Below, piece after piece: positions 7,730 to 52,265 of a stretch of DNA of 61,436 bases. The notes beneath the pieces are model-generated. The model searched no databases, was not told the DNA's origin, and saw only the letters and a list, made by a program, of their open reading frames with translations. Every line of letters starts with the position of its first letter. The first letter of the stretch is position 1. The position numbers and the translations under genes were made by a program. Source of the DNA: a virus; the UHGV virus genome UHGV-0213688; one strand, 5' to 3'.

Positions 7730-10700
7730 TTACCCCATTGCAGTTCTACGAATTGTTCCTCGGGATGCAAAGTCAGTAAGAACTTTATTATATCCCTGCT
7801 CCGCACCATCACGAGCTGCTTGCTGCATGGCTTGCGTGAGCGCAGCATCGCCATTTCCTTGCACCGTGATATACTGAACAATGCTAACACCACCGGACAT
7901 ATTCACGCCACCTTGTTGTGAAGCTTGACTATCCAGGAAGCGGTTTAACTTGTCATTAGACGGGGCATTAAGTACACGTTCACCTTTATCCAATAACCAT
8001 GTACCTTCGCGCGGAACATTATCAATACCGTCATGCGCCATACCAGCGATTGCTAAGCCACCCACAGTAGCAGCAGACGCATAACCCATAGCTTTCACTA
8101 TACCAGCCATAGCTGCGCCCATTGTAGCACCGCCTTGCTGTGTACCCCACGCAAGCGCCGCTGATGCCGCTGTCTCCGTGTTAGCAAGGATTGATGGAAT
8201 TTGCATTGCTTTCTGTGCGGCAAACATTGCCTTATAAATAAAGTTCTGTTTACTAACACCTTCTTCCAGCCCTGACAGTATAATACCCAACGATTCCTGA
8301 GAAAAGGATATCATTCTGTTCATAAGAACTTTATCCAGGTTTTCCCTTTCCATACTTGCTTTCTTCAGGACTTGTGTTTTAGCATCTTCGTAAAGCTGAT
8401 AGTAAGCTAGATCATCGGCTCGTTGTTTTGCATTAAGCTCTGCAATCTTTGTATTTTGCTCGTACGCGATTTTTTCATAGTCCGTCATACCTTCATCTAA
8501 CAGACCCTGAGCAAACTTACGATTCTTCTTACGCTCGTCCAGTTTCTTTTGAGCTTCTTCTGCATCGTAAATTGCAGCAGCAAGACTAACAACTTCTGCT
8601 TTTTCCGCAGCAGTTGCAGACGCATTGAGCTTATTGAGGGCGACAGCTTGGGCTTTCGCTTTGGCGTTTTCCTTAACCCCTGTGGTTACTTCGTTAAGCT
8701 TGTTTCGTAAATCGTCAATAACCTTGGCGTTTTGTTGATCCGCCTTAATAGCGTCTTTTGTAGCTTTAGTCCTGTTTCTCTCTGCTTCTTCAAGATCGTA
8801 GTTTTTGCCAAGGGCTTGGGCTAAATCTTGAGCATACTTAACAAGCTCTTTAGCGGATTCGCTTGTTGCCTCTGAGCTAACGTCCTGACCCATAGCTACT
8901 TTGCGAATAAGACTTCCGTATGTATCCGCATCCTTGCCCAGCGTCTGATACAGTCCCCTAAGGATTGCAGCTTGGCGAGCATTGCCAGCACCTTTAACCG
9001 TGTTAACATCAATCTCACGGTTAACGTCCCCGAGTTGGCCTTTAAAGCGATCCAATACTTTTTCGTCAATTAGCGGACCGGATTTAATGTTAAGGACAGC
9101 CTTCATATCCGCAGCAAGCTGACGCGCTAGAGGGATTATTTTCTCTATAGCGGGGCTTGTCATTTCAAGTACATTGTTATATCGACGTTGTGCGTCTTCC
9201 GCGCGTTCAGCGGCTAGCTTGACGTTATCCGTAGCAATCTGTAAGTTCTTTTCTGCACTAGCAGTATCTCGACCGGATGCAGCTCGACGCTTCAATTGTG
9301 CTTCATAGAACTTCTGCGTTTCCGTTGCAGATTTTAGAGCGGTCTGTTCCCGCTTCATTTGCTCTTCAAGTTCAGGAAGAATTGCTCTAGCTTTGACCGC
9401 GTTAGCTGCCAACTGAGCTTCTGTCATTTGCATCAGTTTTTCGCGTACACTGTCAACACTATCCGCAAACTGATTGTTTTCCGCACGACCTGCTTCCAGC
9501 GACGCTTTATAGGAGTAAATTGCACCCGCTGCCAGCATTGCTACACCAACAGGACCGCCAATTAACCCCATAGCACCGCGCAGCACGCTCATTGCTGTAG
9601 CTGCCCGGCTTGCTGCTGGTACAGTTGCATTAAGAGCAGCATTGAGCGCTTGCCGCGCTTGTACGTCCGCCATAATTGCCGCAGAGTGAGCACGGGTAGC
9701 ATTGATAAGCGCAAGACGAGCACCCGCTTCCGCTGCCGTACCCTTAGCAACCGCTAACGCACCGCGTGCAACCTGCAAAGATGCAAGGGAAGCAGCACGG
9801 TCCGCAGCCGCTTTTTGTGCAGTAACGCCAATGGAGCTTTGCATCACCGCCGTAGTTGCCGCAGTTTGTGCAGCTTCCATCTGAGATGCTTTTGCAGCAG
9901 CTATAGACGCTTTAGTCTTAGCAAGCATTGCCGTAATGATACGGGCGGTGATTACTGTGGCTAAAGCTGAACCAACCGTTACAACCGTTCCTAAGTTTTC
10001 GGATAATGCAACAAACGTCTGTCCCAATGCAGCAACAGCACCTTGAGTCTTTTGGGATTCGCCCATAAACTTAGTCAGGTTGTTTGTTGCAACTGTCCAT
10101 TGCTGGTTGAACGTTGGCATAGTGCGGCTGAATTCTTTATCAATTGTATCCGCGGCACCAGACAACGATTTGATAACCACATCTGCGGTTAACTTACCGC
10201 TGTAGGCCAGTTCACGCAATTGTCCAATGGTAACGCCTAACGAATCGGACATGATTTGAGTTAAGCGCGGAGCTTGTTCTGCAACAGAGCGGAATTCATC
10301 CCCACGCAGAACACCGGATGCCATTGCTTGCGAAAACTGAATAAGGGCAGCACTTGCTTCATGGGATGTTGCACCGGAAACAATCATTGCTTTGTTAATT
10401 GTTTCGGTAATGCGTCCAAGCTCCATCCCTGTCATACCAGTATTCTTCATCGCACGCTGGAGACGGGAGTACAGAGTTGCAGTCGCTTCTAAGCTTGTAC
10501 GAGAACGCTGGGCAATATCAAACACGCGTTGCTGCGCATCTGCAACGGTTTCATTACCCGTACGAGCCAGTTCAAGTTTGTTGGTGAGGATAGTCCAGGA
10601 GTCCGATAGCGAAATAACACGGCTAATAGTGTCAACGCTAATCATTCCTACAATTGCAGCATCCAAACGACTTGTGACAGTTGCAAGTTCGTTAGATGTG

Positions 10701-28587: not shown

Positions 28588-28740
28588 ATGGAATTCAAAT
28601 TAGTGGAACTCGAGTCCGGTAAAATAGCTGGTTATGTATCTGCCCCAAGCTGGGAGGAGGCTGAAATCTTCTTAATGGGTCAGTTCGATATGTACATTAG
28701 CGACATCTACAAGGAATACGATTTAGTCCAAATTAAGTGA
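28588..28740 (+). CDS. small hypothetical protein (50 aa)
   Basis: ORF 28528..28740; preferred ATG 28588 (MEFKLVEL) with AAGGG upstream. Confidence 0.4.
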   Translation: MEFKLVELESGKIAGYVSAPSWEEAEIFLMGQFDMYISDIYKEYDLVQIK

Positions 28741-28748
28741 TTTATATC

Positions 28749-28777
28749 TTGCCTAGTTGATCCAACTGGGCAATAAT
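28749..28777 (+). promoter_or_regulatory. sigma70-like promoter, copy 1 of a repeated element
   Basis: TTGCCT - 17 nt - AATAAT; spacer holds imperfect inverted repeat CCTAGTTGA/TCCAACTGG; 17-nt motif TGATTTATATCTTGCCT overlaps upstream stop codon. Confidence 0.45.
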
Positions 28778-28809
28778 AAGTCAACTTAAACAAAACGAGG
28801 ATATACATC

Positions 28810-29313
28810 ATGGCTACCAAACTAATTGGCAAGGGTGCTTTCACTAAAGCATACCTTCTGGATTCAGGTCGCGTACTTCTAAAATCTTGCGACCCTATTA
28901 AAGAATGCATGGCGTGGGGATGGTTTCCTGAGCATGAATTATTTCCCCATGTCACAATGATAGACACAGGAGTCTACGAAATGGATTATTATCCTCGTGT
29001 TCGCAGCTTAAAGAGCGCTTTACAACCTGAGCAATACGCACTCTATAAACAACTCCGCAGCTTGTGCGCAGGGTTAGAGATGCCGCGTAATACATATGAC
29101 AACTATAGCTATCTATATGATGTTTTCAGTAATAGCGACCTGGCCCAAGACATTAAAGATGTGCTCCTGGAAGCTTTGGATGCTTGCGCTAATATTGGTC
29201 CGCAAATGTGGTTTGAAATCAGTCCTCGCAATGTGGCGGTAAAAAACGGAAAACTTGTTTTGCTGGATGTTTTCTTTTGTACACAAGCTCTAAAGAATAT
29301 CAGAAATAGTTGA
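28810..29313 (+). CDS. hypothetical protein with protein-kinase-like motifs
   Basis: 167 aa; IGKGAFTKAY (Gly-rich-loop-like), LLK, SPRNVAV, LLDVFF (DFG-like); too short for a canonical kinase so function is tentative. Confidence 0.5.
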   Translation: MATKLIGKGAFTKAYLLDSGRVLLKSCDPIKECMAWGWFPEHELFPHVTMIDTGVYEMDYYPRVRSLKSALQPEQYALYKQLRSLCAGLEMPRNTYDNYSYLYDVFSNSDLAQDIKDVLLEALDACANIGPQMWFEISPRNVAVKNGKLVLLDVFFCTQALKNIRNS

Positions 29314-29321
29314 TTTATATC

Positions 29322-29350
29322 TTGCCTACTTCAACTTAGTAGGTAATAAT
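29322..29350 (+). promoter_or_regulatory. sigma70-like promoter, copy 2 of the repeated element
   Basis: identical TTGCCT - 17 nt - AATAAT geometry; spacer inverted repeat CCTACT/AGTAGG; same TGATTTATATCTTGCCT motif overlapping upstream stop. Confidence 0.45.
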
Positions 29351-29399
29351 AAGTACAACTTAGCAAGACTACTAAACAATCCAACAGAAGGAATATACC

Positions 29400-30014
29400 A
29401 TGTCTAAAGTAACCCACCGCGAACAGGATAAAATGCGCTACACCATGAAAACGAATGCACGCCGCGCTCTGAAGACCCGCTGGGGCCAGGTTGCACGCGA
29501 TGCACACGAACAGCTTATCCATCAGGACGACATTGGTTTTTACATTATCGAGAAGGAAGTCCTTCAGGTGCTGCGCGATCACGAAAAAGCGCAACAGCCG
29601 GAGCACAAAGTCCCGGCACCGACCGCCGCGCCAGCTGCCAGCGTCTCGGTACTGCGCCCGATGGTAAATCCGGAAATTGTCAAAAGCTGCCTCGAAGCTC
29701 TGGAGCAGGAGGAAGAGAAAGATATGAAACATGCAAAAGCTGCCACGCAGGTTTCTGAAATCAAAATCGAAGAGCCAAAAGCTGCCGCGCCAAAACAGGA
29801 TGTAAAAGCTGCTCGCTGTGATTTCAAAAATGGCGCTCGCAAGCCTCTGAAAGGAAAAACTGCCGAAGTGTGGGCAATGGGTGACAAACTTTTAGCCGAA
29901 CTGGGCCGCACGCCGGAGCTGAAAGAAATGAAAGCTGCAATGCCTTCTTACAACGGGACGACGGTAGCCATTCAGTTCTACGCTTGGCGCAAATATAACG
30001 GCCTGGACGCATAA
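29400..30014 (+). CDS. hypothetical protein; C-terminal ~50-aa module shared with 45730..46533
   Basis: AAGGA RBS; C-terminus ...VWAMGDKLLAELG...IQFYAWRKYNG matches ...AWALMDQISATLG...TQYARWKKFNG. Confidence 0.55.
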   Translation: MSKVTHREQDKMRYTMKTNARRALKTRWGQVARDAHEQLIHQDDIGFYIIEKEVLQVLRDHEKAQQPEHKVPAPTAAPAASVSVLRPMVNPEIVKSCLEALEQEEEKDMKHAKAATQVSEIKIEEPKAAAPKQDVKAARCDFKNGARKPLKGKTAEVWAMGDKLLAELGRTPELKEMKAAMPSYNGTTVAIQFYAWRKYNGLDA

Positions 30015-40498: not shown

Positions 40499-41227
40499 AT
40501 GGCCATTGAAATTAAAATGTCTTCACAAGTAGTGCAAGACACAGGCGTTAAAATTCTGGTTTACGGTGAAGCGGGTATGGGTAAAACCAGCCTTGTAGCC
40601 ACGCTACCTAAACCAATTTTGATCAGCGCAGAGTCCGGTCTGTTATCTATTGCAGCGGAAAACCTTAATCGCGTTTATGGTAACATGGGATTGCCGATCG
40701 TTTATGATATCCCAGTTATCGAAGTTAAATGTCTGGAGGACGTTGAAGCTGCTTATCAGTGGTGCGTAACTCCAGCTAACCAGCAGTATTTCGATTCTAT
40801 TGCGCTTGACAGCTTGAGCGAAATTGCTGAACAATGTTTAAACAATGCGAAAAAAGGAACAAAAGATCCTCGTCAAGCTTATGGTACTTTGCTTGAAAAG
40901 ATGCAAGATCTGATCCGTAAATTTCGCGATATTCCTGGCAAACATGTTTATATGTCTGCTAAAATGGGCAAAGACAAAGATGAAGTCTCCGGTGTTACCG
41001 CGTATGCTCCATCTATGCCTGGGTCCAAATTGGGGCAAATGCTCCCTTATTTCTTCGACGAAGTATTTCGTCTGAATGTAAATAAGGATCAGCAAGGTAA
41101 CTCATATCGTTACTTGCAAACTCAACCGGACTTTAATACAATCGCTAAGGATCGTTCGGGACGTTTAGATGCGGTTGAAGTCCCACACTTAGGTTCTGTT
41201 ATCAACAAAATGAAAGGTATCAACTAA
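40499..41227 (+). CDS. RecA-like AAA ATPase (Sak4-like recombination protein)
   Basis: Walker A GEAGMGKTS near N-terminus, about 240 aa; followed by DUF669-like gene as in Sak4 modules. Confidence 0.55.
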   Translation: MAIEIKMSSQVVQDTGVKILVYGEAGMGKTSLVATLPKPILISAESGLLSIAAENLNRVYGNMGLPIVYDIPVIEVKCLEDVEAAYQWCVTPANQQYFDSIALDSLSEIAEQCLNNAKKGTKDPRQAYGTLLEKMQDLIRKFRDIPGKHVYMSAKMGKDKDEVSGVTAYAPSMPGSKLGQMLPYFFDEVFRLNVNKDQQGNSYRYLQTQPDFNTIAKDRSGRLDAVEVPHLGSVINKMKGIN

Positions 41228-42096
41228 TGACTATGCCAACTAATTTCCACTTTGACGCGAGCAGCTATCAAGCACCTTCTTACGGCGCATTGCCGAAAGG
41301 TTGGTATAAAGCAGTAATTGAAGCATCTGAATTTAAACCGACCAAAAATGGCGGTATAGCAATCCAGGTAACGTTTAGCATCATTGATGGTTTTGCTAAA
41401 GGTCGTAAAATCTTTGCTCGTTATAACGTTATCAACGACAACGAAGATACTGTGCGTATCGCTTACGAGCAACTGGGCGCTCTTTCCCACGCTGTAGGCG
41501 TAATTCGCTGGGATACCCCTGCTCAACTGCACAACATTCCGCTGAACCTGCGTCTGAAAGTTCGTTCTCAGGAAGGCTATGAAGACAGCAACGAGCCGAA
41601 CGGTTACGCTAACATCAACGATCCGGTTAAGTATGCAGAAAAAGAAGCAGGTGCTCCGGCAATGGGTGCTCAAGCAGCAGTAGCCAACCCGTTCGGTGCA
41701 GGTGCTCCAGCACAGCAGCCAGCATTCCCGGGCGCAGCACCGCAGCAGCCAGCAGCTAACCCGTTTGCTCAGCAACAGCAAGCTCCGGTACAGCAACAGC
41801 AGCAGCCAGTTCAGCAGCCTGTTCAGCAACCAGCACCGCAGCAGGGCGCAGCAGCTCAACCGTGGCAGAACGCAGCACCGCAGCCGTGGGATAATCCTGC
41901 TCAAAACGCAGCGCCGCAGCAGCCAGTTCAGCAAGCTCCGGTACAACAGCCAGTAGCACCGGAAGCAGCTCAGCAGCCGTGGGCGCAGCAGGTAGCACAG
42001 CCGGGTCAGGCAGCAGCACCACAGCAGCAAGCGCAGCCACAGCAGCAAGCTGAACCGCATCCGGCACAAGCAGCAGTCCCGCCGTGGCAGCAGTAA
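41227..42096 (+). CDS. DUF669-like protein with long Q/P/A-rich disordered C-terminal tail
   Basis: globular N-terminal ~140 aa then ~150 aa of QQP/PQQ repeats with recurring PW(Q/D/A) motifs. Confidence 0.5.
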   Translation: MTMPTNFHFDASSYQAPSYGALPKGWYKAVIEASEFKPTKNGGIAIQVTFSIIDGFAKGRKIFARYNVINDNEDTVRIAYEQLGALSHAVGVIRWDTPAQLHNIPLNLRLKVRSQEGYEDSNEPNGYANINDPVKYAEKEAGAPAMGAQAAVANPFGAGAPAQQPAFPGAAPQQPAANPFAQQQQAPVQQQQQPVQQPVQQPAPQQGAAAQPWQNAAPQPWDNPAQNAAPQQPVQQAPVQQPVAPEAAQQPWAQQVAQPGQAAAPQQQAQPQQQAEPHPAQAAVPPWQQ

Positions 42097-43071: not shown

Positions 43072-45048
43072 ATGCAACTCCGCGATTATCAACAGGAAGC
43101 AGTTTATAGCGTATTCCGCTATTTTGATGCTGAAAAGGGTAACGCGGGGAACCCTTTGATCCTGTTACCAACAGGGACAGGAAAATCGCTCGTTATCGCG
43201 GGGTTCCTCGATCTGCTTTATAAATGGTATCCAAACCAGCGCGTAATGATGTTAACTCACGTCAAAGAGTTAATTGCGCAAAACTATGATAAATTAATGA
43301 AAGTCTGGCCTGAAGCGCCAGCAGGTATTTACAGCGCAGGTTTGAAGCGTAAAGAAGTTTATAATCTTATCACATTTGCGGGGATTGCATCTGTTGCTAA
43401 GCATCCTAAAAAGTTCGGCAAGGTTGATCTAATCTTTGTGGATGAAGCGCACCTTATTAGTCCGCGTGATGCAACAATGTATAAGAAGTTCTTTGCAGCA
43501 TTGCGTGAAGTTAACCCGTATTTAAAAATTATCGGTCTTACCGCTACACCTTACCGACTGGGTTACGGCTCAATTGTTAAGGAAAACGAAGACGATGATG
43601 CTTTATTTGATAAAGTAACGTTTGATGCAACTACCCCTGAAGCCTTTAACTGGTTCCTGGAGCAAGGCTATTTGCTTCCGGTTGTGCCAAAGCGTACAAA
43701 GATGGAACTGGACCTCAATGGTGTAGGGAAACGCGGCGGTGAGTTTATTCAGAGTGAGCTGCAAAGTGCGGTGAACCGCGACGACGCAACACTCCGAGCA
43801 CTTGAGGAAGCCATTGAATGTGGTGAAGACCGTCAAAGTTGGCTTATATTTTGTTCTGGTATTGAACACGCTAAAGATGCGTGTGATATGCTAAACGATA
43901 TGGGTATTAGTTGCGGATGTATTCACTCAAAGCTTGATGCAAAAGAGCGTGACGAGATTATTGAAAAGTTCAAGCGTGGAGAGTTTCGAGCGCTGACAAA
44001 TAACAACGTCTTAACCACAGGTTTCGACCATCCAATGCTTGATCTGATTATCATGCTTCGCCCAACTGCCTCGGCGGTGCTATGGGTTCAGATGTTGGGT
44101 CGCGGTACGCGTCCGGTATATGCGGAGGGCTTTGATCTTTCCACGCAGGAAGGCCGCTTGCAAGCTATTGCAGCAAGCCCTAAGCAGAACTGCCTTGTAC
44201 TGGATTTCAGCGGTAATACGCGTCGTTTGGGCCCTATTAACGACCCTGTTAAACCCAAGCGCCCGGGCGAAAAAGGTGCTGGTACTGCTCCGGTTAAAGA
44301 ATGCGATGTGTGCGGGTCGTATAATCATGCATCTGCTCGCTATTGTGGTGGCTTTGCACCAATTCCTATGGACAGCGTTACACAGGAACAAGTTCAACAA
44401 TTATATTTGAAGGGATTCAGACTACGTGGAACGGATTATGTTAAAGAAGGATTTTGCGGTCATGAGTTTAAGTTCCAGACGAAACTTAAAAAGGCAGCAA
44501 GTACCGAAGCACTGATCAAACAGGACATTCCGGTAGTTGAAGACTTCAAAGTTACGCATGTGACTTATGCGAAGCACACTAAACGCAATGACAGCTCCAA
44601 ACCTCCAACAATGAAGGTGACTTATTATTGCGGTAGTAAAATATTCAGCGAATGGGTAGCTCTACTTCATGGTGACTGGGCGGGTCGTAAAGCGGTCGCA
44701 TGGTGGAAGAAAAGGACGCATCTTCCTTTACCACAAACTATTGAAGAAGCTCTTGATGTTGCTGCAATGCTTAAAACACCGAAATACATCAAAGTTCATA
44801 CCAATAAGAAATGGCCTGAGATATTGAACTACGATTATGATGGTACGTGTTTCGGTAAGTTTGAAGCTCCACAGGACGACGAAGCTATTCAAGTTAAAGT
44901 ATACGGGCAAGATGGAACAACCGAAGGTCCGAGCTATAACGATGATGTGAGCTGGGATGATATTGTTTCGCAGAATACGCAAGGTATAACAGTGAACAAT
45001 GTGGTTAATCCTGTACAAGTAGATGATCCAGATTACGTTCCGTTCTAA
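43072..45048 (+). CDS. superfamily 2 DNA helicase (DEAH-type)
   Basis: DYQQEAV (Q-motif-like), Walker A PTGTGKS, VDEAH box, helicase C-terminal region, Cys4 zinc ribbon CDVCGS...CGG. Confidence 0.75.
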   Translation: MQLRDYQQEAVYSVFRYFDAEKGNAGNPLILLPTGTGKSLVIAGFLDLLYKWYPNQRVMMLTHVKELIAQNYDKLMKVWPEAPAGIYSAGLKRKEVYNLITFAGIASVAKHPKKFGKVDLIFVDEAHLISPRDATMYKKFFAALREVNPYLKIIGLTATPYRLGYGSIVKENEDDDALFDKVTFDATTPEAFNWFLEQGYLLPVVPKRTKMELDLNGVGKRGGEFIQSELQSAVNRDDATLRALEEAIECGEDRQSWLIFCSGIEHAKDACDMLNDMGISCGCIHSKLDAKERDEIIEKFKRGEFRALTNNNVLTTGFDHPMLDLIIMLRPTASAVLWVQMLGRGTRPVYAEGFDLSTQEGRLQAIAASPKQNCLVLDFSGNTRRLGPINDPVKPKRPGEKGAGTAPVKECDVCGSYNHASARYCGGFAPIPMDSVTQEQVQQLYLKGFRLRGTDYVKEGFCGHEFKFQTKLKKAASTEALIKQDIPVVEDFKVTHVTYAKHTKRNDSSKPPTMKVTYYCGSKIFSEWVALLHGDWAGRKAVAWWKKRTHLPLPQTIEEALDVAAMLKTPKYIKVHTNKKWPEILNYDYDGTCFGKFEAPQDDEAIQVKVYGQDGTTEGPSYNDDVSWDDIVSQNTQGITVNNVVNPVQVDDPDYVPF

Positions 45049-45063
45049 TTGACTTCAACATCT

Positions 45064-45096
45064 AATGCCCCTACTATTGGGGCATTACTTATTTAT
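45064..45096 (+). terminator. probable rho-independent terminator
   Basis: AATGCCCC-tactatt-GGGGCATT then interrupted T-run ACTTATTTAT. Confidence 0.5.
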
Positions 45097-45107
45097 AGGG
45101 GATTGCA

Positions 45108-45602
45108 ATGTACGTCCTGATTGATACAGATAAATTTGAACTCTTGGCAAAGCATCCCAATTGGCTGACACTACACCAACTTGGAATTATTTGTTGCCCT
45201 GAGTCAACACTGGTGACACCAGTAGACGATTTACATGATCTTGAAGATGTTGATCTTCAAATGCTTTATATTAACTTGACAGAAAACTTAGGAGCTGCAC
45301 CTTATGAACGGGAAATCGTTGAGCGCATTTTGTTTGATTACTTTACGCAACTTCCAGAAACAATCCTGGATCACGCCCAAATCAGCGCACAAGCCGAATT
45401 CTGTGTGGAATACGATATCCAAGGCTTTTGCTCACCTCAAATTGGGCAATACGTTCCGTCAATGGATGAAGGACTTTGGAAACCTGCCCGTGCCAAATAC
45501 GATGCTGAACGGGAGGGTGGTATTATTTCCGGTGCCAGGGTCGTTTGTGAGCAACCCGCATTGCAAGCCGCATGGACACCGGGCAGAGGGGCAAAGAGTT
45601 AG
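45108..45602 (+). CDS. hypothetical protein
   Basis: 164 aa; AGGGG RBS. Confidence 0.5.
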   Translation: MYVLIDTDKFELLAKHPNWLTLHQLGIICCPESTLVTPVDDLHDLEDVDLQMLYINLTENLGAAPYEREIVERILFDYFTQLPETILDHAQISAQAEFCVEYDIQGFCSPQIGQYVPSMDEGLWKPARAKYDAEREGGIISGARVVCEQPALQAAWTPGRGAKS

Positions 45603-45623
45603 TAAGTTCTAAGCTTGATCAAA

Positions 45624-45641
45624 AATATTTTTAAAAATATT
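45624..45641. repeat. perfect 18-bp AT palindrome upstream of 45730 gene (candidate operator)
   Basis: AATATTTTTAAAAATATT is its own reverse complement. Confidence 0.5.
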
Positions 45642-45729
45642 CAGATAAGGGGTTGCGTGTCACAAAATCCTTTGGTACATTTAACCCCGTTGGTAACAAA
45701 CGAACCCATAACAATTCGGAGTGAAGAGA

Positions 45730-46533
45730 ATGAGCAACATTGAAGACAAAAAAGCTGCTGCCGCAGCCGCTGCTGCCGCCGCTGCAAAATCTGCTAAACC
45801 TGCAAAGAAAGAAGCTACTGTGAATGATGCAGAAGCTAAGAAAGCCGCAGCCGCTGAAGCTGCACGCGTAGCAAAAGAGAAAAAAGAAGCAGAGAAAAAA
45901 GCTGCCGCTGAAAAGAAACAAGCTGAAATCCGCACTGAAGCGGAAAACAAATTCAATGCGATTGCTAACGCTGCTGAAATCCTGAAAAACTCTTTGGCTA
46001 CCGTCACCGACGAAAGCACTGTTGAACAGATCACGGAAGCGGAAACTCAGGGATCTGCAAACCTGAAGACCATTAAAGAAGCTCTGAAAGAGCTGAAAGC
46101 TGTCGTTAAGAAGTCTAAAGGTGAAGACCTGTCCGGTGCTGTAACTTCTGCTCAGGGCCTGGTGGATGGTCTGGAAGCTACTATTAAAGGCTTCAAAGAC
46201 AAGATCCGTGCTGCAAAACAGGCAGAAAAAGAAGCGGAAAAAGCGCGCGCTAAAGAGCTTCGTGAGAAAGAAAAAGAAGCTAACCGTATGCCGGAACAGA
46301 ACGGTGTTCGTCGTCCACAACCGGAAACTTCCTGCGGTCGTGCCTGGGCTCTGATGGACCAGATTAGCGCTACGCTGGGTCAGCCTGCTCCGATCTCTTA
46401 TGTTCTGAACCTGGCTGGTCGCCATGGTCTGAACGAAGATACCATTAAAACTCAGTATGCACGCTGGAAGAAATTTAATGGTGTGACTGGTCGCGTACCT
46501 GTACCCGTACCGGAAGCCCTGAACGGCTTGTAA
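45730..46533 (+). CDS. Ala/Lys/Glu-rich protein with poly-Ala run and conserved C-terminal module
   Basis: GGAG 9 nt upstream of ATG 45730 (ORF track begins at GTG 45721); 11 consecutive Ala codons; C-terminal module shared with 29400..30014. Confidence 0.55.
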   Translation: MSNIEDKKAAAAAAAAAAAKSAKPAKKEATVNDAEAKKAAAAEAARVAKEKKEAEKKAAAEKKQAEIRTEAENKFNAIANAAEILKNSLATVTDESTVEQITEAETQGSANLKTIKEALKELKAVVKKSKGEDLSGAVTSAQGLVDGLEATIKGFKDKIRAAKQAEKEAEKARAKELREKEKEANRMPEQNGVRRPQPETSCGRAWALMDQISATLGQPAPISYVLNLAGRHGLNEDTIKTQYARWKKFNGVTGRVPVPVPEALNGL

Positions 46534-46558
46534 TATCAAAACATATCACGTTATAATG

Positions 46559-46587
46559 AAAGCGCCCAATGAGGCGCTTTCTTTTTC
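46559..46587 (+). terminator. rho-independent terminator
   Basis: AAAGCGCC-CAATGA-GGCGCTTT followed by CTTTTTC. Confidence 0.65.
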
Positions 46588-46602: not shown

Positions 46603-47310
46603 ATGAATATTAATCAACAAGCTCCCGAGTCTCGTTCTAAAGAAAACGATATGTATTTAGACGTGCATTCGGTATTCTCTACCATTCAGGGTGAAGGTCC
46701 ATTCTGCGGTCAACCTGCGGTATTTGTGCGCCTTGCTGGATGTAACCTGCAATGCCCGGGCTGCGACACGGATTATACTGTTGGTCGTTCTCTTTACCAC
46801 ATTGTTGATATCATGCGTTTAATCGAAAGCCGTAAGCTGGAATCTGGCAATAGCACCTCACTTGTGGTTATCACTGGGGGCGAACCATTCCGCCAGCAAA
46901 TTAACCCGTTTATTGAACAACTGTTATCACGCGGGTATCTTGTGCAGATTGAAACGAATGGGTCTATGCCTTTACCTAAGAACTTTTCCCAGCTACCTGT
47001 CATTGTATGCAGTCCTAAGACTTCAAAAATTCATCCTACTGTGCTGTACCGAGCAAACGCATTTAAATATGTGCTTAAAGCGTGCTGTGTAAACGTGGAA
47101 GACGGTTTACCGCTTCAGGCATTAGATCATCAAGCTACGCCATTTATCGCTAGACCTCCGAAGGGGTTCAAGGGTAAGATATATTTACAGCCAATGGACG
47201 AGCAGGATGAAGATCTTAACCACAGTAACATCCAAGCGGTTGTCCAAAGCTGTATGAAACACGGGTACACGTTGCAGCTTCAGGTTCACAAATATATCGG
47301 GGTGGAATAA
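46603..47310 (+). CDS. queE: 7-carboxy-7-deazaguanine synthase (radical SAM)
   Basis: VFSTIQGEGPFCGQPAVFVRLAGCNLQCPGCDTDYT matches the QueE N-terminal cluster-binding signature; AGAGGA RBS. Confidence 0.8.
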   Translation: MNINQQAPESRSKENDMYLDVHSVFSTIQGEGPFCGQPAVFVRLAGCNLQCPGCDTDYTVGRSLYHIVDIMRLIESRKLESGNSTSLVVITGGEPFRQQINPFIEQLLSRGYLVQIETNGSMPLPKNFSQLPVIVCSPKTSKIHPTVLYRANAFKYVLKACCVNVEDGLPLQALDHQATPFIARPPKGFKGKIYLQPMDEQDEDLNHSNIQAVVQSCMKHGYTLQLQVHKYIGVE

Positions 47311-51344: not shown

Positions 51345-52265
51345 ATGAACGTTTTTATGGCAGCAGTTTACACAAACGGATATATGCCCGGGCAGCAGCG
51401 CTATGAAAAGCTGTCCGAGCATGAGAAAAATATCACGCGCAATCTGCCCCATATTTTGGAATCATACCACTACGTTGGACGTCAGAAGTATGTTGATCAA
51501 ATGCGTGCGGATGGGGCTAAAGTGTTTCTCGACTCCGGTGCATTCTCCGCGCACTCGTTAGGTGCTCACATTGATATTGTTGAATACTGCGAATACATCA
51601 AGCGCAACAAAGACATCCTTCGCGTAGAAGATGGTGCGGTGATGGCGTCAGTGCTCGATGGTATCGGTGATCCGTTGCAGACCTACCGTAACCAACTTGA
51701 AATGGAAGCACGCGGTGCTAAACCGTTACCTTGCTTTCACTTTGGGGAGGACTTCCGCTATCTTGAATACTACATGAAGAACTACGAATATATCACCATC
51801 GGGGGCATGGTAGGACGTTCCACAGACACGCTTAAAACTTGGCTGGACCGCATGTGGGACAAATACATTTGCGACGGTAGCGGACGTGCTAAGATTAAAC
51901 TTCATGCGTTTGGTATTACGTCCACAACCATTATGGAACGTTATCCGTGGTATAGCTGTGACTCTTCCTCCTGGATTCAAGCAGCAGCGTTTGGAAGTGT
52001 GGTTACTCCTCCGTGGGGCCCAATGCGCGTATCAGATAAGTCACCGGACCGCCATCATTTTGGTAAGCATGTTTCAACATTAACTGAAATTGAACAAGAC
52101 GCTGTCCTTAAATACCTTGAGCAAAACGGTTTCACTTACGAACGTTTATCAACAATCTATGAATCACGTGCTGCCTTCAACTTATGGGCGTATGGTGTAA
52201 TTGCTACAAACATTAACGCTACCCATGACGGCACATTCCGTGATCGTGTAATGGAGTTATTTTGA
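51345..52265 (+). CDS. dpdA: DpdA-like tRNA-guanine-transglycosylase homologue (7-deazaguanine DNA transglycosylase)
   Basis: TGT-like VFLDSGAFSAH motif and TIM-barrel-like pattern; no TGT zinc site; directly downstream of folE. Confidence 0.65.
   Translation: MNVFMAAVYTNGYMPGQQRYEKLSEHEKNITRNLPHILESYHYVGRQKYVDQMRADGAKVFLDSGAFSAHSLGAHIDIVEYCEYIKRNKDILRVEDGAVMASVLDGIGDPLQTYRNQLEMEARGAKPLPCFHFGEDFRYLEYYMKNYEYITIGGMVGRSTDTLKTWLDRMWDKYICDGSGRAKIKLHAFGITSTTIMERYPWYSCDSSSWIQAAAFGSVVTPPWGPMRVSDKSPDRHHFGKHVSTLTEIEQDAVLKYLEQNGFTYERLSTIYESRAAFNLWAYGVIATNINATHDGTFRDRVMELF

Follow-up and report, generated by a model that had tools for sequence, protein, structure and literature searches.

The 61,436-nt genome of the virus UHGV-0213688, referred to below as the window (the whole stretch of DNA that was analysed), encodes two otherwise different proteins, A and B, that end in the same module of ~65-70 residues. 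This module is very probably homologous to KfrA_N (PF11740), the N-terminal DNA-binding head of the plasmid protein KfrA, of which it would be an uncatalogued and very widespread phage relative. Our overall reading, to which we assign a probability of roughly 55%, is that the module is a KfrA_N-like helix-turn-helix (HTH) anchor that joins different partner domains to DNA.

Two otherwise different proteins share a C-terminal module

Gene A (45730..46533, + strand) encodes 267 aa and gene B (29400..30014, + strand) 204 aa. Both open reading frames (ORFs) are present as described in the initial annotation, which had also proposed that the two otherwise different proteins share a C-terminal module. 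BLASTP aligned residues 187-255 of A with residues 137-202 of B over 69 residues at 29% identity (E=2e-6). Here A is numbered from a GTG start at 45721, which gives a 270-aa translation and underlies some of the gene A numbering used in this work. The Smith-Waterman score of the C-terminal segments was 82, a value reached by 0/2000 shuffles (23.0±4.4, maximum 49, z=13.4). A profile built from homologues and searched against the six-frame translation of the window recovered exactly two module copies, those in A and B. Taken together, the BLASTP alignment, the shuffle test and the two-copy profile result demonstrate that the proposed similarity is real. Chance resemblance is rejected by the shuffle statistics, both for the pairwise comparison and for the hhalign controls described below, and a third copy in the window is likewise rejected, as the six-frame profile search found none. 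Copy 1 occupies 46285..46494 on the + strand (A residues 186-255) and consists of a KfrA_N-like HTH with the β-hairpin EQNGVRR and predicted helices at residues 201-216, 222-231 and 236-249; copy 2 occupies 29820..30005 on the + strand (B residues 141-202).

The DNA around both loci is 92-97% identical to that of Seuratvirus phages (CAjan, Seurat, SD04 and ~30 others), and, judged from its sequence, the source genome is a Seuratvirus (subfamily Queuovirinae), an E. coli phage. Gene A is the orthologue of CAjan gp46; its ATG at 45730 is preceded by a GGAG motif and agrees with the annotated start of gp46. Gene B is the orthologue of Seurat gp65, a hypothetical protein. Both proteins have full-length PHROG matches, A to phrog_11298 (E=1.2e-110, residues 19-270 of the 270-aa GTG-start translation) and B to phrog_22313 (E=1.8e-142, residues 1-204), and both of these PHROGs are labelled as unknown function. 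CAjan gp46 is annotated as 'transcriptional activator FtrA domain-containing protein', and other records name A orthologues 'plectin 1' (Greed), 'outer capsid protein' (CSP1C) or hypothetical. The papers on R7M, Iggy, MuF toxins and polyvalent proteins and the anthracycline study make no mention of gp46-like genes.

The module is a predicted helix-turn-helix, probably related to the KfrA head

An AlphaFold2 (AF2) model based on a 74-sequence alignment predicts a short β-hairpin over E-Q-N-G-V-R-R followed by three helices, with predicted local distance difference test (pLDDT) values of ~85-89 in the core. In the model of full-length A (mean pLDDT 88.6), the module core reaches 95-98. The positions that are invariant or nearly so throughout the family are the Pro of the hairpin motif NG-x-x-RP, a Trp and usually an Asp in helix 1, the Gly in the turn between helices 2 and 3, and a Trp in helix 3. 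A turn glycine between helices 2 and 3 combined with a polar or basic helix 3 (T-Q-Y-x-x-W-R-K) is the classical HTH pattern, and the module is predicted by the model to be a three-helix HTH with an N-terminal β-hairpin. The earlier suggestion of a small folded domain of the kind found in DNA-binding proteins is thus borne out by the predicted HTH with its conserved turn glycine and by the profile link to the N-terminal HTH of KfrA.

No model in Pfam or NCBIfam matches the module, no named function is available for it from Pfam, NCBIfam or PHROGs, and a PDB sequence search with the module profile returned nothing usable. KfrA_N was the Pfam family most often matched below threshold (6/74 members, best E=0.0017). 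No scanned member reached its 26.1-bit cut-off, the best E-value being 0.0017 among 74 members and 0.0013 among 134, and A and B gave no KfrA_N hit at E<=1 in Pfam. We compared the module profile by hhalign with a KfrA N-terminal profile based on 120 homologues of R751 KfrA (itself taken from a plasmid collection), all carrying PF11740. The module aligned to the KfrA N-terminal profile with a probability of 91% (E=1e-6, score 35.4), module columns 21-67 corresponding to KfrA residues 6-50. The reversed template scored 9.1, and 150 column-shuffled templates scored 9.6±2.1 with a maximum of 16.2. Reciprocal searches of HMMs against sequences agreed: the module HMM matched 116/120 of the KfrA proteins, with 7-52 as the aligned stretch among the best matches listed, and the KfrA_N HMM matched both module copies of P0096, a metagenomic protein described below, at 30 bits. 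A PDB sequence search with the KfrA head returned nothing usable and no solved KfrA_N structure.

KfrA binds operator DNA through its N-terminal HTH head, which is followed by a long α-helical coiled-coil tail; it forms parallel dimers and DNA-dependent filaments, and it autoregulates its expression by binding, in a sequence-specific manner, an operator within the kfrA promoter (PMC7821693). KfrA also interacts with ParB- and ParA-type proteins (PMC7783346). An operator search upstream of gene A, carried out by intergenic alignment across genera, showed that this intergenic region is not conserved and found no repeat shared beyond the genus.

A large family with varied partner domains

With a limit of E<=1e-3, a HMMER search with a 47-sequence module profile matched at least 4,082 representative clusters (50% identity); with E<=1e-10, it matched 2,077. 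The module is the common C-terminus of at least seven PHROGs of 'unknown function' (11298, 18634, 21588, 17772, 22313, 7864 and 28664) and is C-terminal in 205/235 collected members. According to the architectures drawn from phage records and the full HMMER search, the partner regions differ widely. Some members carry Ala/Lys/Glu-rich helical stretches, and others SAP/Rho_N-like and zinc-ribbon segments, which are sub-threshold Pfam hits only. A small N-terminal domain with the motif 'Y-x-x-K-S-N-A-x-R-A-A-K ... DG-F' recurs in 44/235 members and is also present in B, and phrog_7864 has a 'MYVLID' domain. There are also tandem proteins made of two or three modules, such as P0093 and P0100.

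The module occurs as well in phage head proteins of the MuF type. The large proteins P0095, P0099, P0131, P0187 and P0198 combine a Phage_Mu_F domain above cut-off with two modules and an ADP-ribosyltransferase, and in P0095 both the MuF and the ADP-ribosyltransferase domains exceed their Pfam cut-offs; the Phage_Mu_F hit of P0217 is below cut-off. The two-module proteins with MuF and ADP-ribosyltransferase domains or HExxH motifs are encoded between likely portal and scaffold genes. P0096 gave no Pfam MuF hit at E<=0.001; its gene directly follows those of terminase and a likely portal, the usual place of MuF/gp7 minor head proteins, and because of this position we grouped it with them. P0095, P0096 and P0125, all metagenomic and with two module copies, contain the HExxH-type motifs HEMMH, HELAHW and HEIVHW, which look metallopeptidase-like by eye. 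These three proteins resemble processed polyvalent effectors, whose inner domains would include the module. SPP1 gp7, a characterised MuF/gp7-type member, is called a DNA-binding protein in the title of a paper cited as reference 32 of PMC5576092. Neither A nor B showed a MuF domain when scanned with Pfam.

Regions upstream of the module in A and B

In the initial annotation, both proteins were described as carrying a highly charged Lys/Ala/Glu-rich region upstream of the module, which was likened to a histone-like basic linker. A is indeed Ala/Lys/Glu-rich, its first 183 residues containing 26% Ala, 18% Lys and 15% Glu, but the region is nearly charge-balanced (K+R 38 versus D+E 33, net +5; pI 9.1), and in B only ~40 residues make up a charged linker. 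The alanine run of A, exactly 11 residues long as reported, is part of a short predicted helix (45739..45786, + strand; residues 4-19) with a pLDDT of only 65-71. The following Ala/Lys/Glu-rich helical domain (45823..46284, + strand) has predicted helices at residues 32-90, 98-128 and 135-185, arranged as an antiparallel bundle or coiled coil with pLDDT values of ~84-96, mostly above 90 across the long helices. A is thus laid out as an N-terminal Ala run, three long helices and the C-terminal module. The near balance of charges and the long ordered helices of the AF2 model, with no disordered basic tail, led us to reject a histone-like linker, and the upstream region of A is instead predicted to be an ordered helical domain, either a bundle or a coiled coil. 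Foldseek matches to this region, all at E>0.27, were limited to spectrin repeats and antiparallel three-helix bundles of a generic kind.

In B, most of the upstream region belongs to a distinct domain, the small N-terminal one common to 44/235 members, here in the form 'Y-x-x-K-[ST]-N-A-x-R-A-x-K ... DG-F' (29439..29555, + strand; residues 14-52). An HMM built from family N-termini matched residues 14-66 of B with E=5e-4 in a search against 1001 six-frame ORFs of the window.

We also observed that the A orthologues of Vibrio phage BA3 (L005, 3378..4034) and Rhizobium phage RHEph04 (L006, 3405..4007) begin with the hydrophobic, signal-peptide-like sequences MNKLALLALPLFAS... and MRKLYLSTAALLAGVCFS..., respectively, and that an N-terminal module follows. 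This would mean either that the annotated start codons are wrong or that these forms of the protein are exported or anchored in a membrane.

The antisense frame and codon usage of gene A

The complementary strand of gene A contains a 302-aa ORF (45631..46539, − strand), which had been dismissed as an artefact of GCN-repeat composition. It is an artefact and no gene; GCN repeats are, however, only part of the cause. The frame is exactly in register with the sense codons of gene A, and it meets no stop because TTA, CTA and TCA codons are all absent from that gene. Their absence is due to the small number of Leu and Ser residues (27 codons) and to a strong codon bias (Leu is CTG in 13/16 cases); given the A protein sequence and the window-average codon usage, the probability of lacking all three codons is 0.0017. 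The antisense frame is broken in the orthologues of CAjan (codons 89 and 115), 9g, R7M, HD01, BA3 and Yong and is therefore not conserved, and we reject a real antisense gene on these grounds. The GC content of gene A is 49% versus 44.6% for the window, and the strong codon bias suggests that gene A is highly expressed.

Gene neighbourhood and the 7-deazaguanine cluster

Gene A and the preceding gene (45108..45602, + strand), which matches positions 1-163 of the 242 of phrog_7864, lie between two terminator-like hairpins, with a helicase gene before them and queE after. The SF2 helicase gene (43072..45048, + strand) is a conserved upstream neighbour of module genes. It is followed by the first hairpin (45063..45087, + strand), after which the two-gene unit 45108..46533 starts. 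The second hairpin (46558..46581, + strand; 9 bp, 6 GC, T-run) is strong and separates gene A from queE (46603..47310, + strand), the first gene of the 7-deazaguanine cluster, directly downstream of gene A. Terminators are annotated at the same junction between the A orthologue and queE in PaMx25 and Bhz54. Within the cluster, dpdA (51345..52265, + strand), encoding the DNA transglycosylase, is 50% identical to an Me-ZS1 protein annotated as TGT. This DpdA orthologue has no Pfam hit at E<=0.01, so that profile-based annotation would miss it.

The arrangement is conserved in related phages. The A orthologue lies directly upstream of queE in CAjan, 9g, PaMx25, BA3, Bhz54 and R7M; in HD01 and RHEph04 it is again upstream, but separated from queE by one to a few small genes. 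Module-bearing genes also precede queE in Me-ZS1 and in the metagenomic contigs L013 and L014. R7M, HD01, PaMx25 and Bhz54 have a run of three genes between helicase and queE, all of them with the module at the C-terminal end. The architecture of B is that of the first gene of this array, and in Seuratvirus it is found ~16 kb away. The orthologues of 45108..45602 in 9g, PaMx25, R7M and BA3 carry a divergent C-terminal copy of the module, and the modules of P0008 and P0070 match positions 153-242 of phrog_7864. In 45108..45602 itself the module is missing, and the six-frame profile search found no remnant in any frame. This gene is the second of the three-gene array, with its module lost in Seuratvirus. 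Yong-L2-223, Erebus and contig L017 have another arrangement, with dpdA or the que cluster still near the module.

A tblastn search returned 152 phage records for the A-type module and 155 for full-length DpdA of this clade. The counts by genus for module and DpdA are almost identical, being 41/41 for Escherichia, 32/32 for Pseudomonas, 23/23 for Vibrio, 13/14 for Rhizobium and 8/8 for Enterobacteria. The module occurs outside this setting in a Pseudomonas chromosomal island, with no que/dpdA within 10 kb, and in phage ART, with none within 7 kb. Inheritance of the replication block as a unit would also account for the co-occurrence of the module with DpdA.

Several other features were noted. 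The Pseudomonas island (L012, a contig of Pseudomonas sp. R-28-1W-6) is flanked by integrases; it encodes a short-type module protein (10001..10363) and also holds Prim-Pol/NrS1-like polymerase genes and an ApaLI-type restriction-modification pair. In the actinophages Gordonia phage Sour and Mycobacterium phage Quesadilla, which lack the module, a distant DpdA is gene 2, and the feature names under the match include gene 1, ParB-like. The two genes recall the DpdA-DpdB pairing of bacterial Dpd systems, in which the ParB-like DpdB presumably helps to bring DpdA to DNA, by loading or targeting it. The + strand of the window has two copies of a 66-nt element, at 28731..28796 and 29304..29369 (73% identical), upstream of the ORF 28810..29313 and of gene B, respectively. 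Both copies have the promoter-like hexamers TTGCCT-17-AATAAT with a short inverted repeat between them, and the element may be a phage-specific promoter or operator; similar 'promoter stem-loops' have reportedly been described for CAjan. The DUF669 protein encoded at 41227..42096 (+ strand; PF05037 over residues 8-144) has imperfect C-terminal repeats of the GCAGCACCGCAGCAGCC type at 41700..42090.

Proposed function and alternative explanations

We propose that the module is a compact HTH with a basic β-hairpin arm (NG-x-x-RP), a distant phage branch of KfrA_N, which phages would use as a portable DNA anchor on varied partner domains. In A, the anchor would be combined with a long mixed-charge helical domain, as in a reversed KfrA-like 'head plus helical tail'. 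A would most likely self-associate and bind the DNA of the phage, with an architectural or regulatory function in the replication/modification block. In B, whose gene opens the rightward early operon, the same anchor would be attached to a different small N-terminal domain. Such specific roles for A and B are offered tentatively. That the module binds DNA is rather probable, a view drawn from the homology to KfrA_N, the predicted HTH and the tandem arrays of 2-3 module copies, as well as from partners of nucleic-acid-binding type (sub-threshold SAP/Rho_N and zinc ribbons), the position in the replication block after the helicase, and the kinship with MuF/gp7 proteins.

Alternatively, the module could be a protein-protein docking domain without DNA binding. 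It would then bring N-terminal domains such as the helical bundle, SAP/zinc ribbon, MYVLID and MuF-toxin to a common hub, for example the portal, the RNA polymerase of the host, or the helicase or replisome of the phage. We regard such a docking function as unlikely, because the homology points to an HTH of a known DNA-binding kind, the turn glycine and the polar or basic helix 3 suit a recognition helix, and tandem repeats are more typical of DNA-binding arrays. The names given to A orthologues in CSP1C and Greed, together with an 'internal head protein' nearby in SHIN8, could instead suggest that A is part of the virion or otherwise structural, whether as a decoration, an 'outer capsid' or an internal head protein. 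The module relatives inside MuF head proteins and the codon usage indicative of high expression point in the same direction. A structural role is nevertheless highly improbable: gene A has a terminator on either side and belongs to the replication/modification block, at a great distance from the structural genes, the record names apparently stem from low-complexity matches, and neither A nor B has a MuF or other structural domain.

The module proteins might also be accessory factors of the 7-deazaguanine system that load or target DpdA or read modified DNA. The A orthologue adjoins queE in the six annotated phages listed above and is nearby in HD01 and RHEph04, module-bearing genes precede queE in Me-ZS1 and the two metagenomic contigs, the module is near the dpdA/que cluster in Yong-L2-223, Erebus and L017, and the 152 module and 155 DpdA phage records have near-equal genus counts. 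Moreover, a ParB-like gene is beside dpdA in the two actinophage records listed, and KfrA reportedly interacts with proteins of the ParB and ParA types. The known modification chemistry contrasts with this idea. In E. coli, 9g DpdA together with Gat-QueC suffices to modify up to ~18% of plasmid G (PMC6884629), and nt-1 DpdA2 alone inserts dPreQ0 (PMC10516641), which indicates that the chemistry has no need for module proteins. In addition, a terminator lies between gene A and queE, gene B is 16 kb off, the module is also found in the Pseudomonas island, phage ART and head proteins, and the co-occurrence is confounded by the shared ancestry of the whole replication block. We consequently consider an accessory role to be quite improbable. 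The same low standing applies to its most specific form, in which the module family would be the dedicated DNA-binding partner of the phage DpdA clade, a counterpart of ParB-like DpdB in Queuovirinae-like phages that positions DpdA on replicating DNA or discriminates 7-deazaguanine-modified phage DNA from unmodified host DNA. If true, this would account for the retention of as many as three module genes between helicase and que/dpdA across phages that infect Proteobacteria and Cyanobacteria, and for the nearly identical sets of ~150 sequenced phages that contain the module and DpdA.

With the module read as a KfrA_N-like DNA anchor, a domain outside the coverage of Pfam, NCBIfam and PDB gains a testable candidate function, namely DNA binding via a KfrA-like HTH, and DNA binding becomes the probable role of two 'hypothetical' genes. 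The domain is found in at least 4,000 protein clusters, which have so far been scattered over about seven PHROGs of 'unknown function' or have been given the mistaken names 'FtrA transcriptional activator', 'plectin' and 'outer capsid protein'. The plasmid proteins of the KfrA head-and-tail type would have phage counterparts, and the same anchor would be built into ejected MuF-toxin head proteins. Beside the 7-deazaguanine cluster, a conserved, unexplored gene set may tune replication, transcription or modification in Queuovirinae. What is new here is a very large and uncatalogued branch, found in phages, of an already known type of DNA-binding domain; its unusual uses are the triple gene arrays by the deazaguanine cluster and the insertion into ejected MuF-toxin proteins.

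Comparison with known systems

Histone-like Lys/Ala-rich proteins, of which bacterial H1-like tails are an example, share with A the high Ala and Lys content and the alanine run. They consist of strongly basic, acid-poor and largely disordered Lys/Ala(/Pro) repeats, whereas A is close to an acid/base balance and has predicted ordered helices. HNH_repeat (PF18780), a family associated with homing endonucleases, has in common with the module the short motif L-G-R-x-P-[ST] ... [ST] ... W and an HTH-like size. Its hits for B (14.6 bits, E=0.044) and others are weak, A gave no hit, and only the distant MuF relative P0096, at 27.1 bits, passes the 26-bit cut-off. In each scanned set only 1-2 members match it, and no HNH nuclease is associated. 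The MuF / SPP1 gp7-type head proteins (PF04233 plus toxins) contain the same module in two copies, whereas A and B are free of MuF and toxin domains and their genes are in the early/replication region.

The closest likeness is to KfrA of IncP-1/IncU plasmids, with which the module very probably shares a homologous HTH core and A shares the combination of a small DNA-binding head and a long Ala/Glu/Lys/Arg-rich α-helical region. The orthologues in BA3 and RHEph04 have the head first and the Ala/Lys/Glu helical tail after it, as in KfrA. By contrast, A resembles the KfrA design in reversed order, with the helical tail N-terminal and the head C-terminal, and its tail is predicted to fold into a three-helix bundle, in place of the long parallel coiled coil of KfrA. 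The module also has an additional N-terminal NG-x-x-RP β-hairpin outside the KfrA alignment. Finally, gene A belongs to the replication block of a lytic phage, whereas kfrA belongs to the plasmid central-control/partition region korA-incC-korB-kfrA, as compared with R751.

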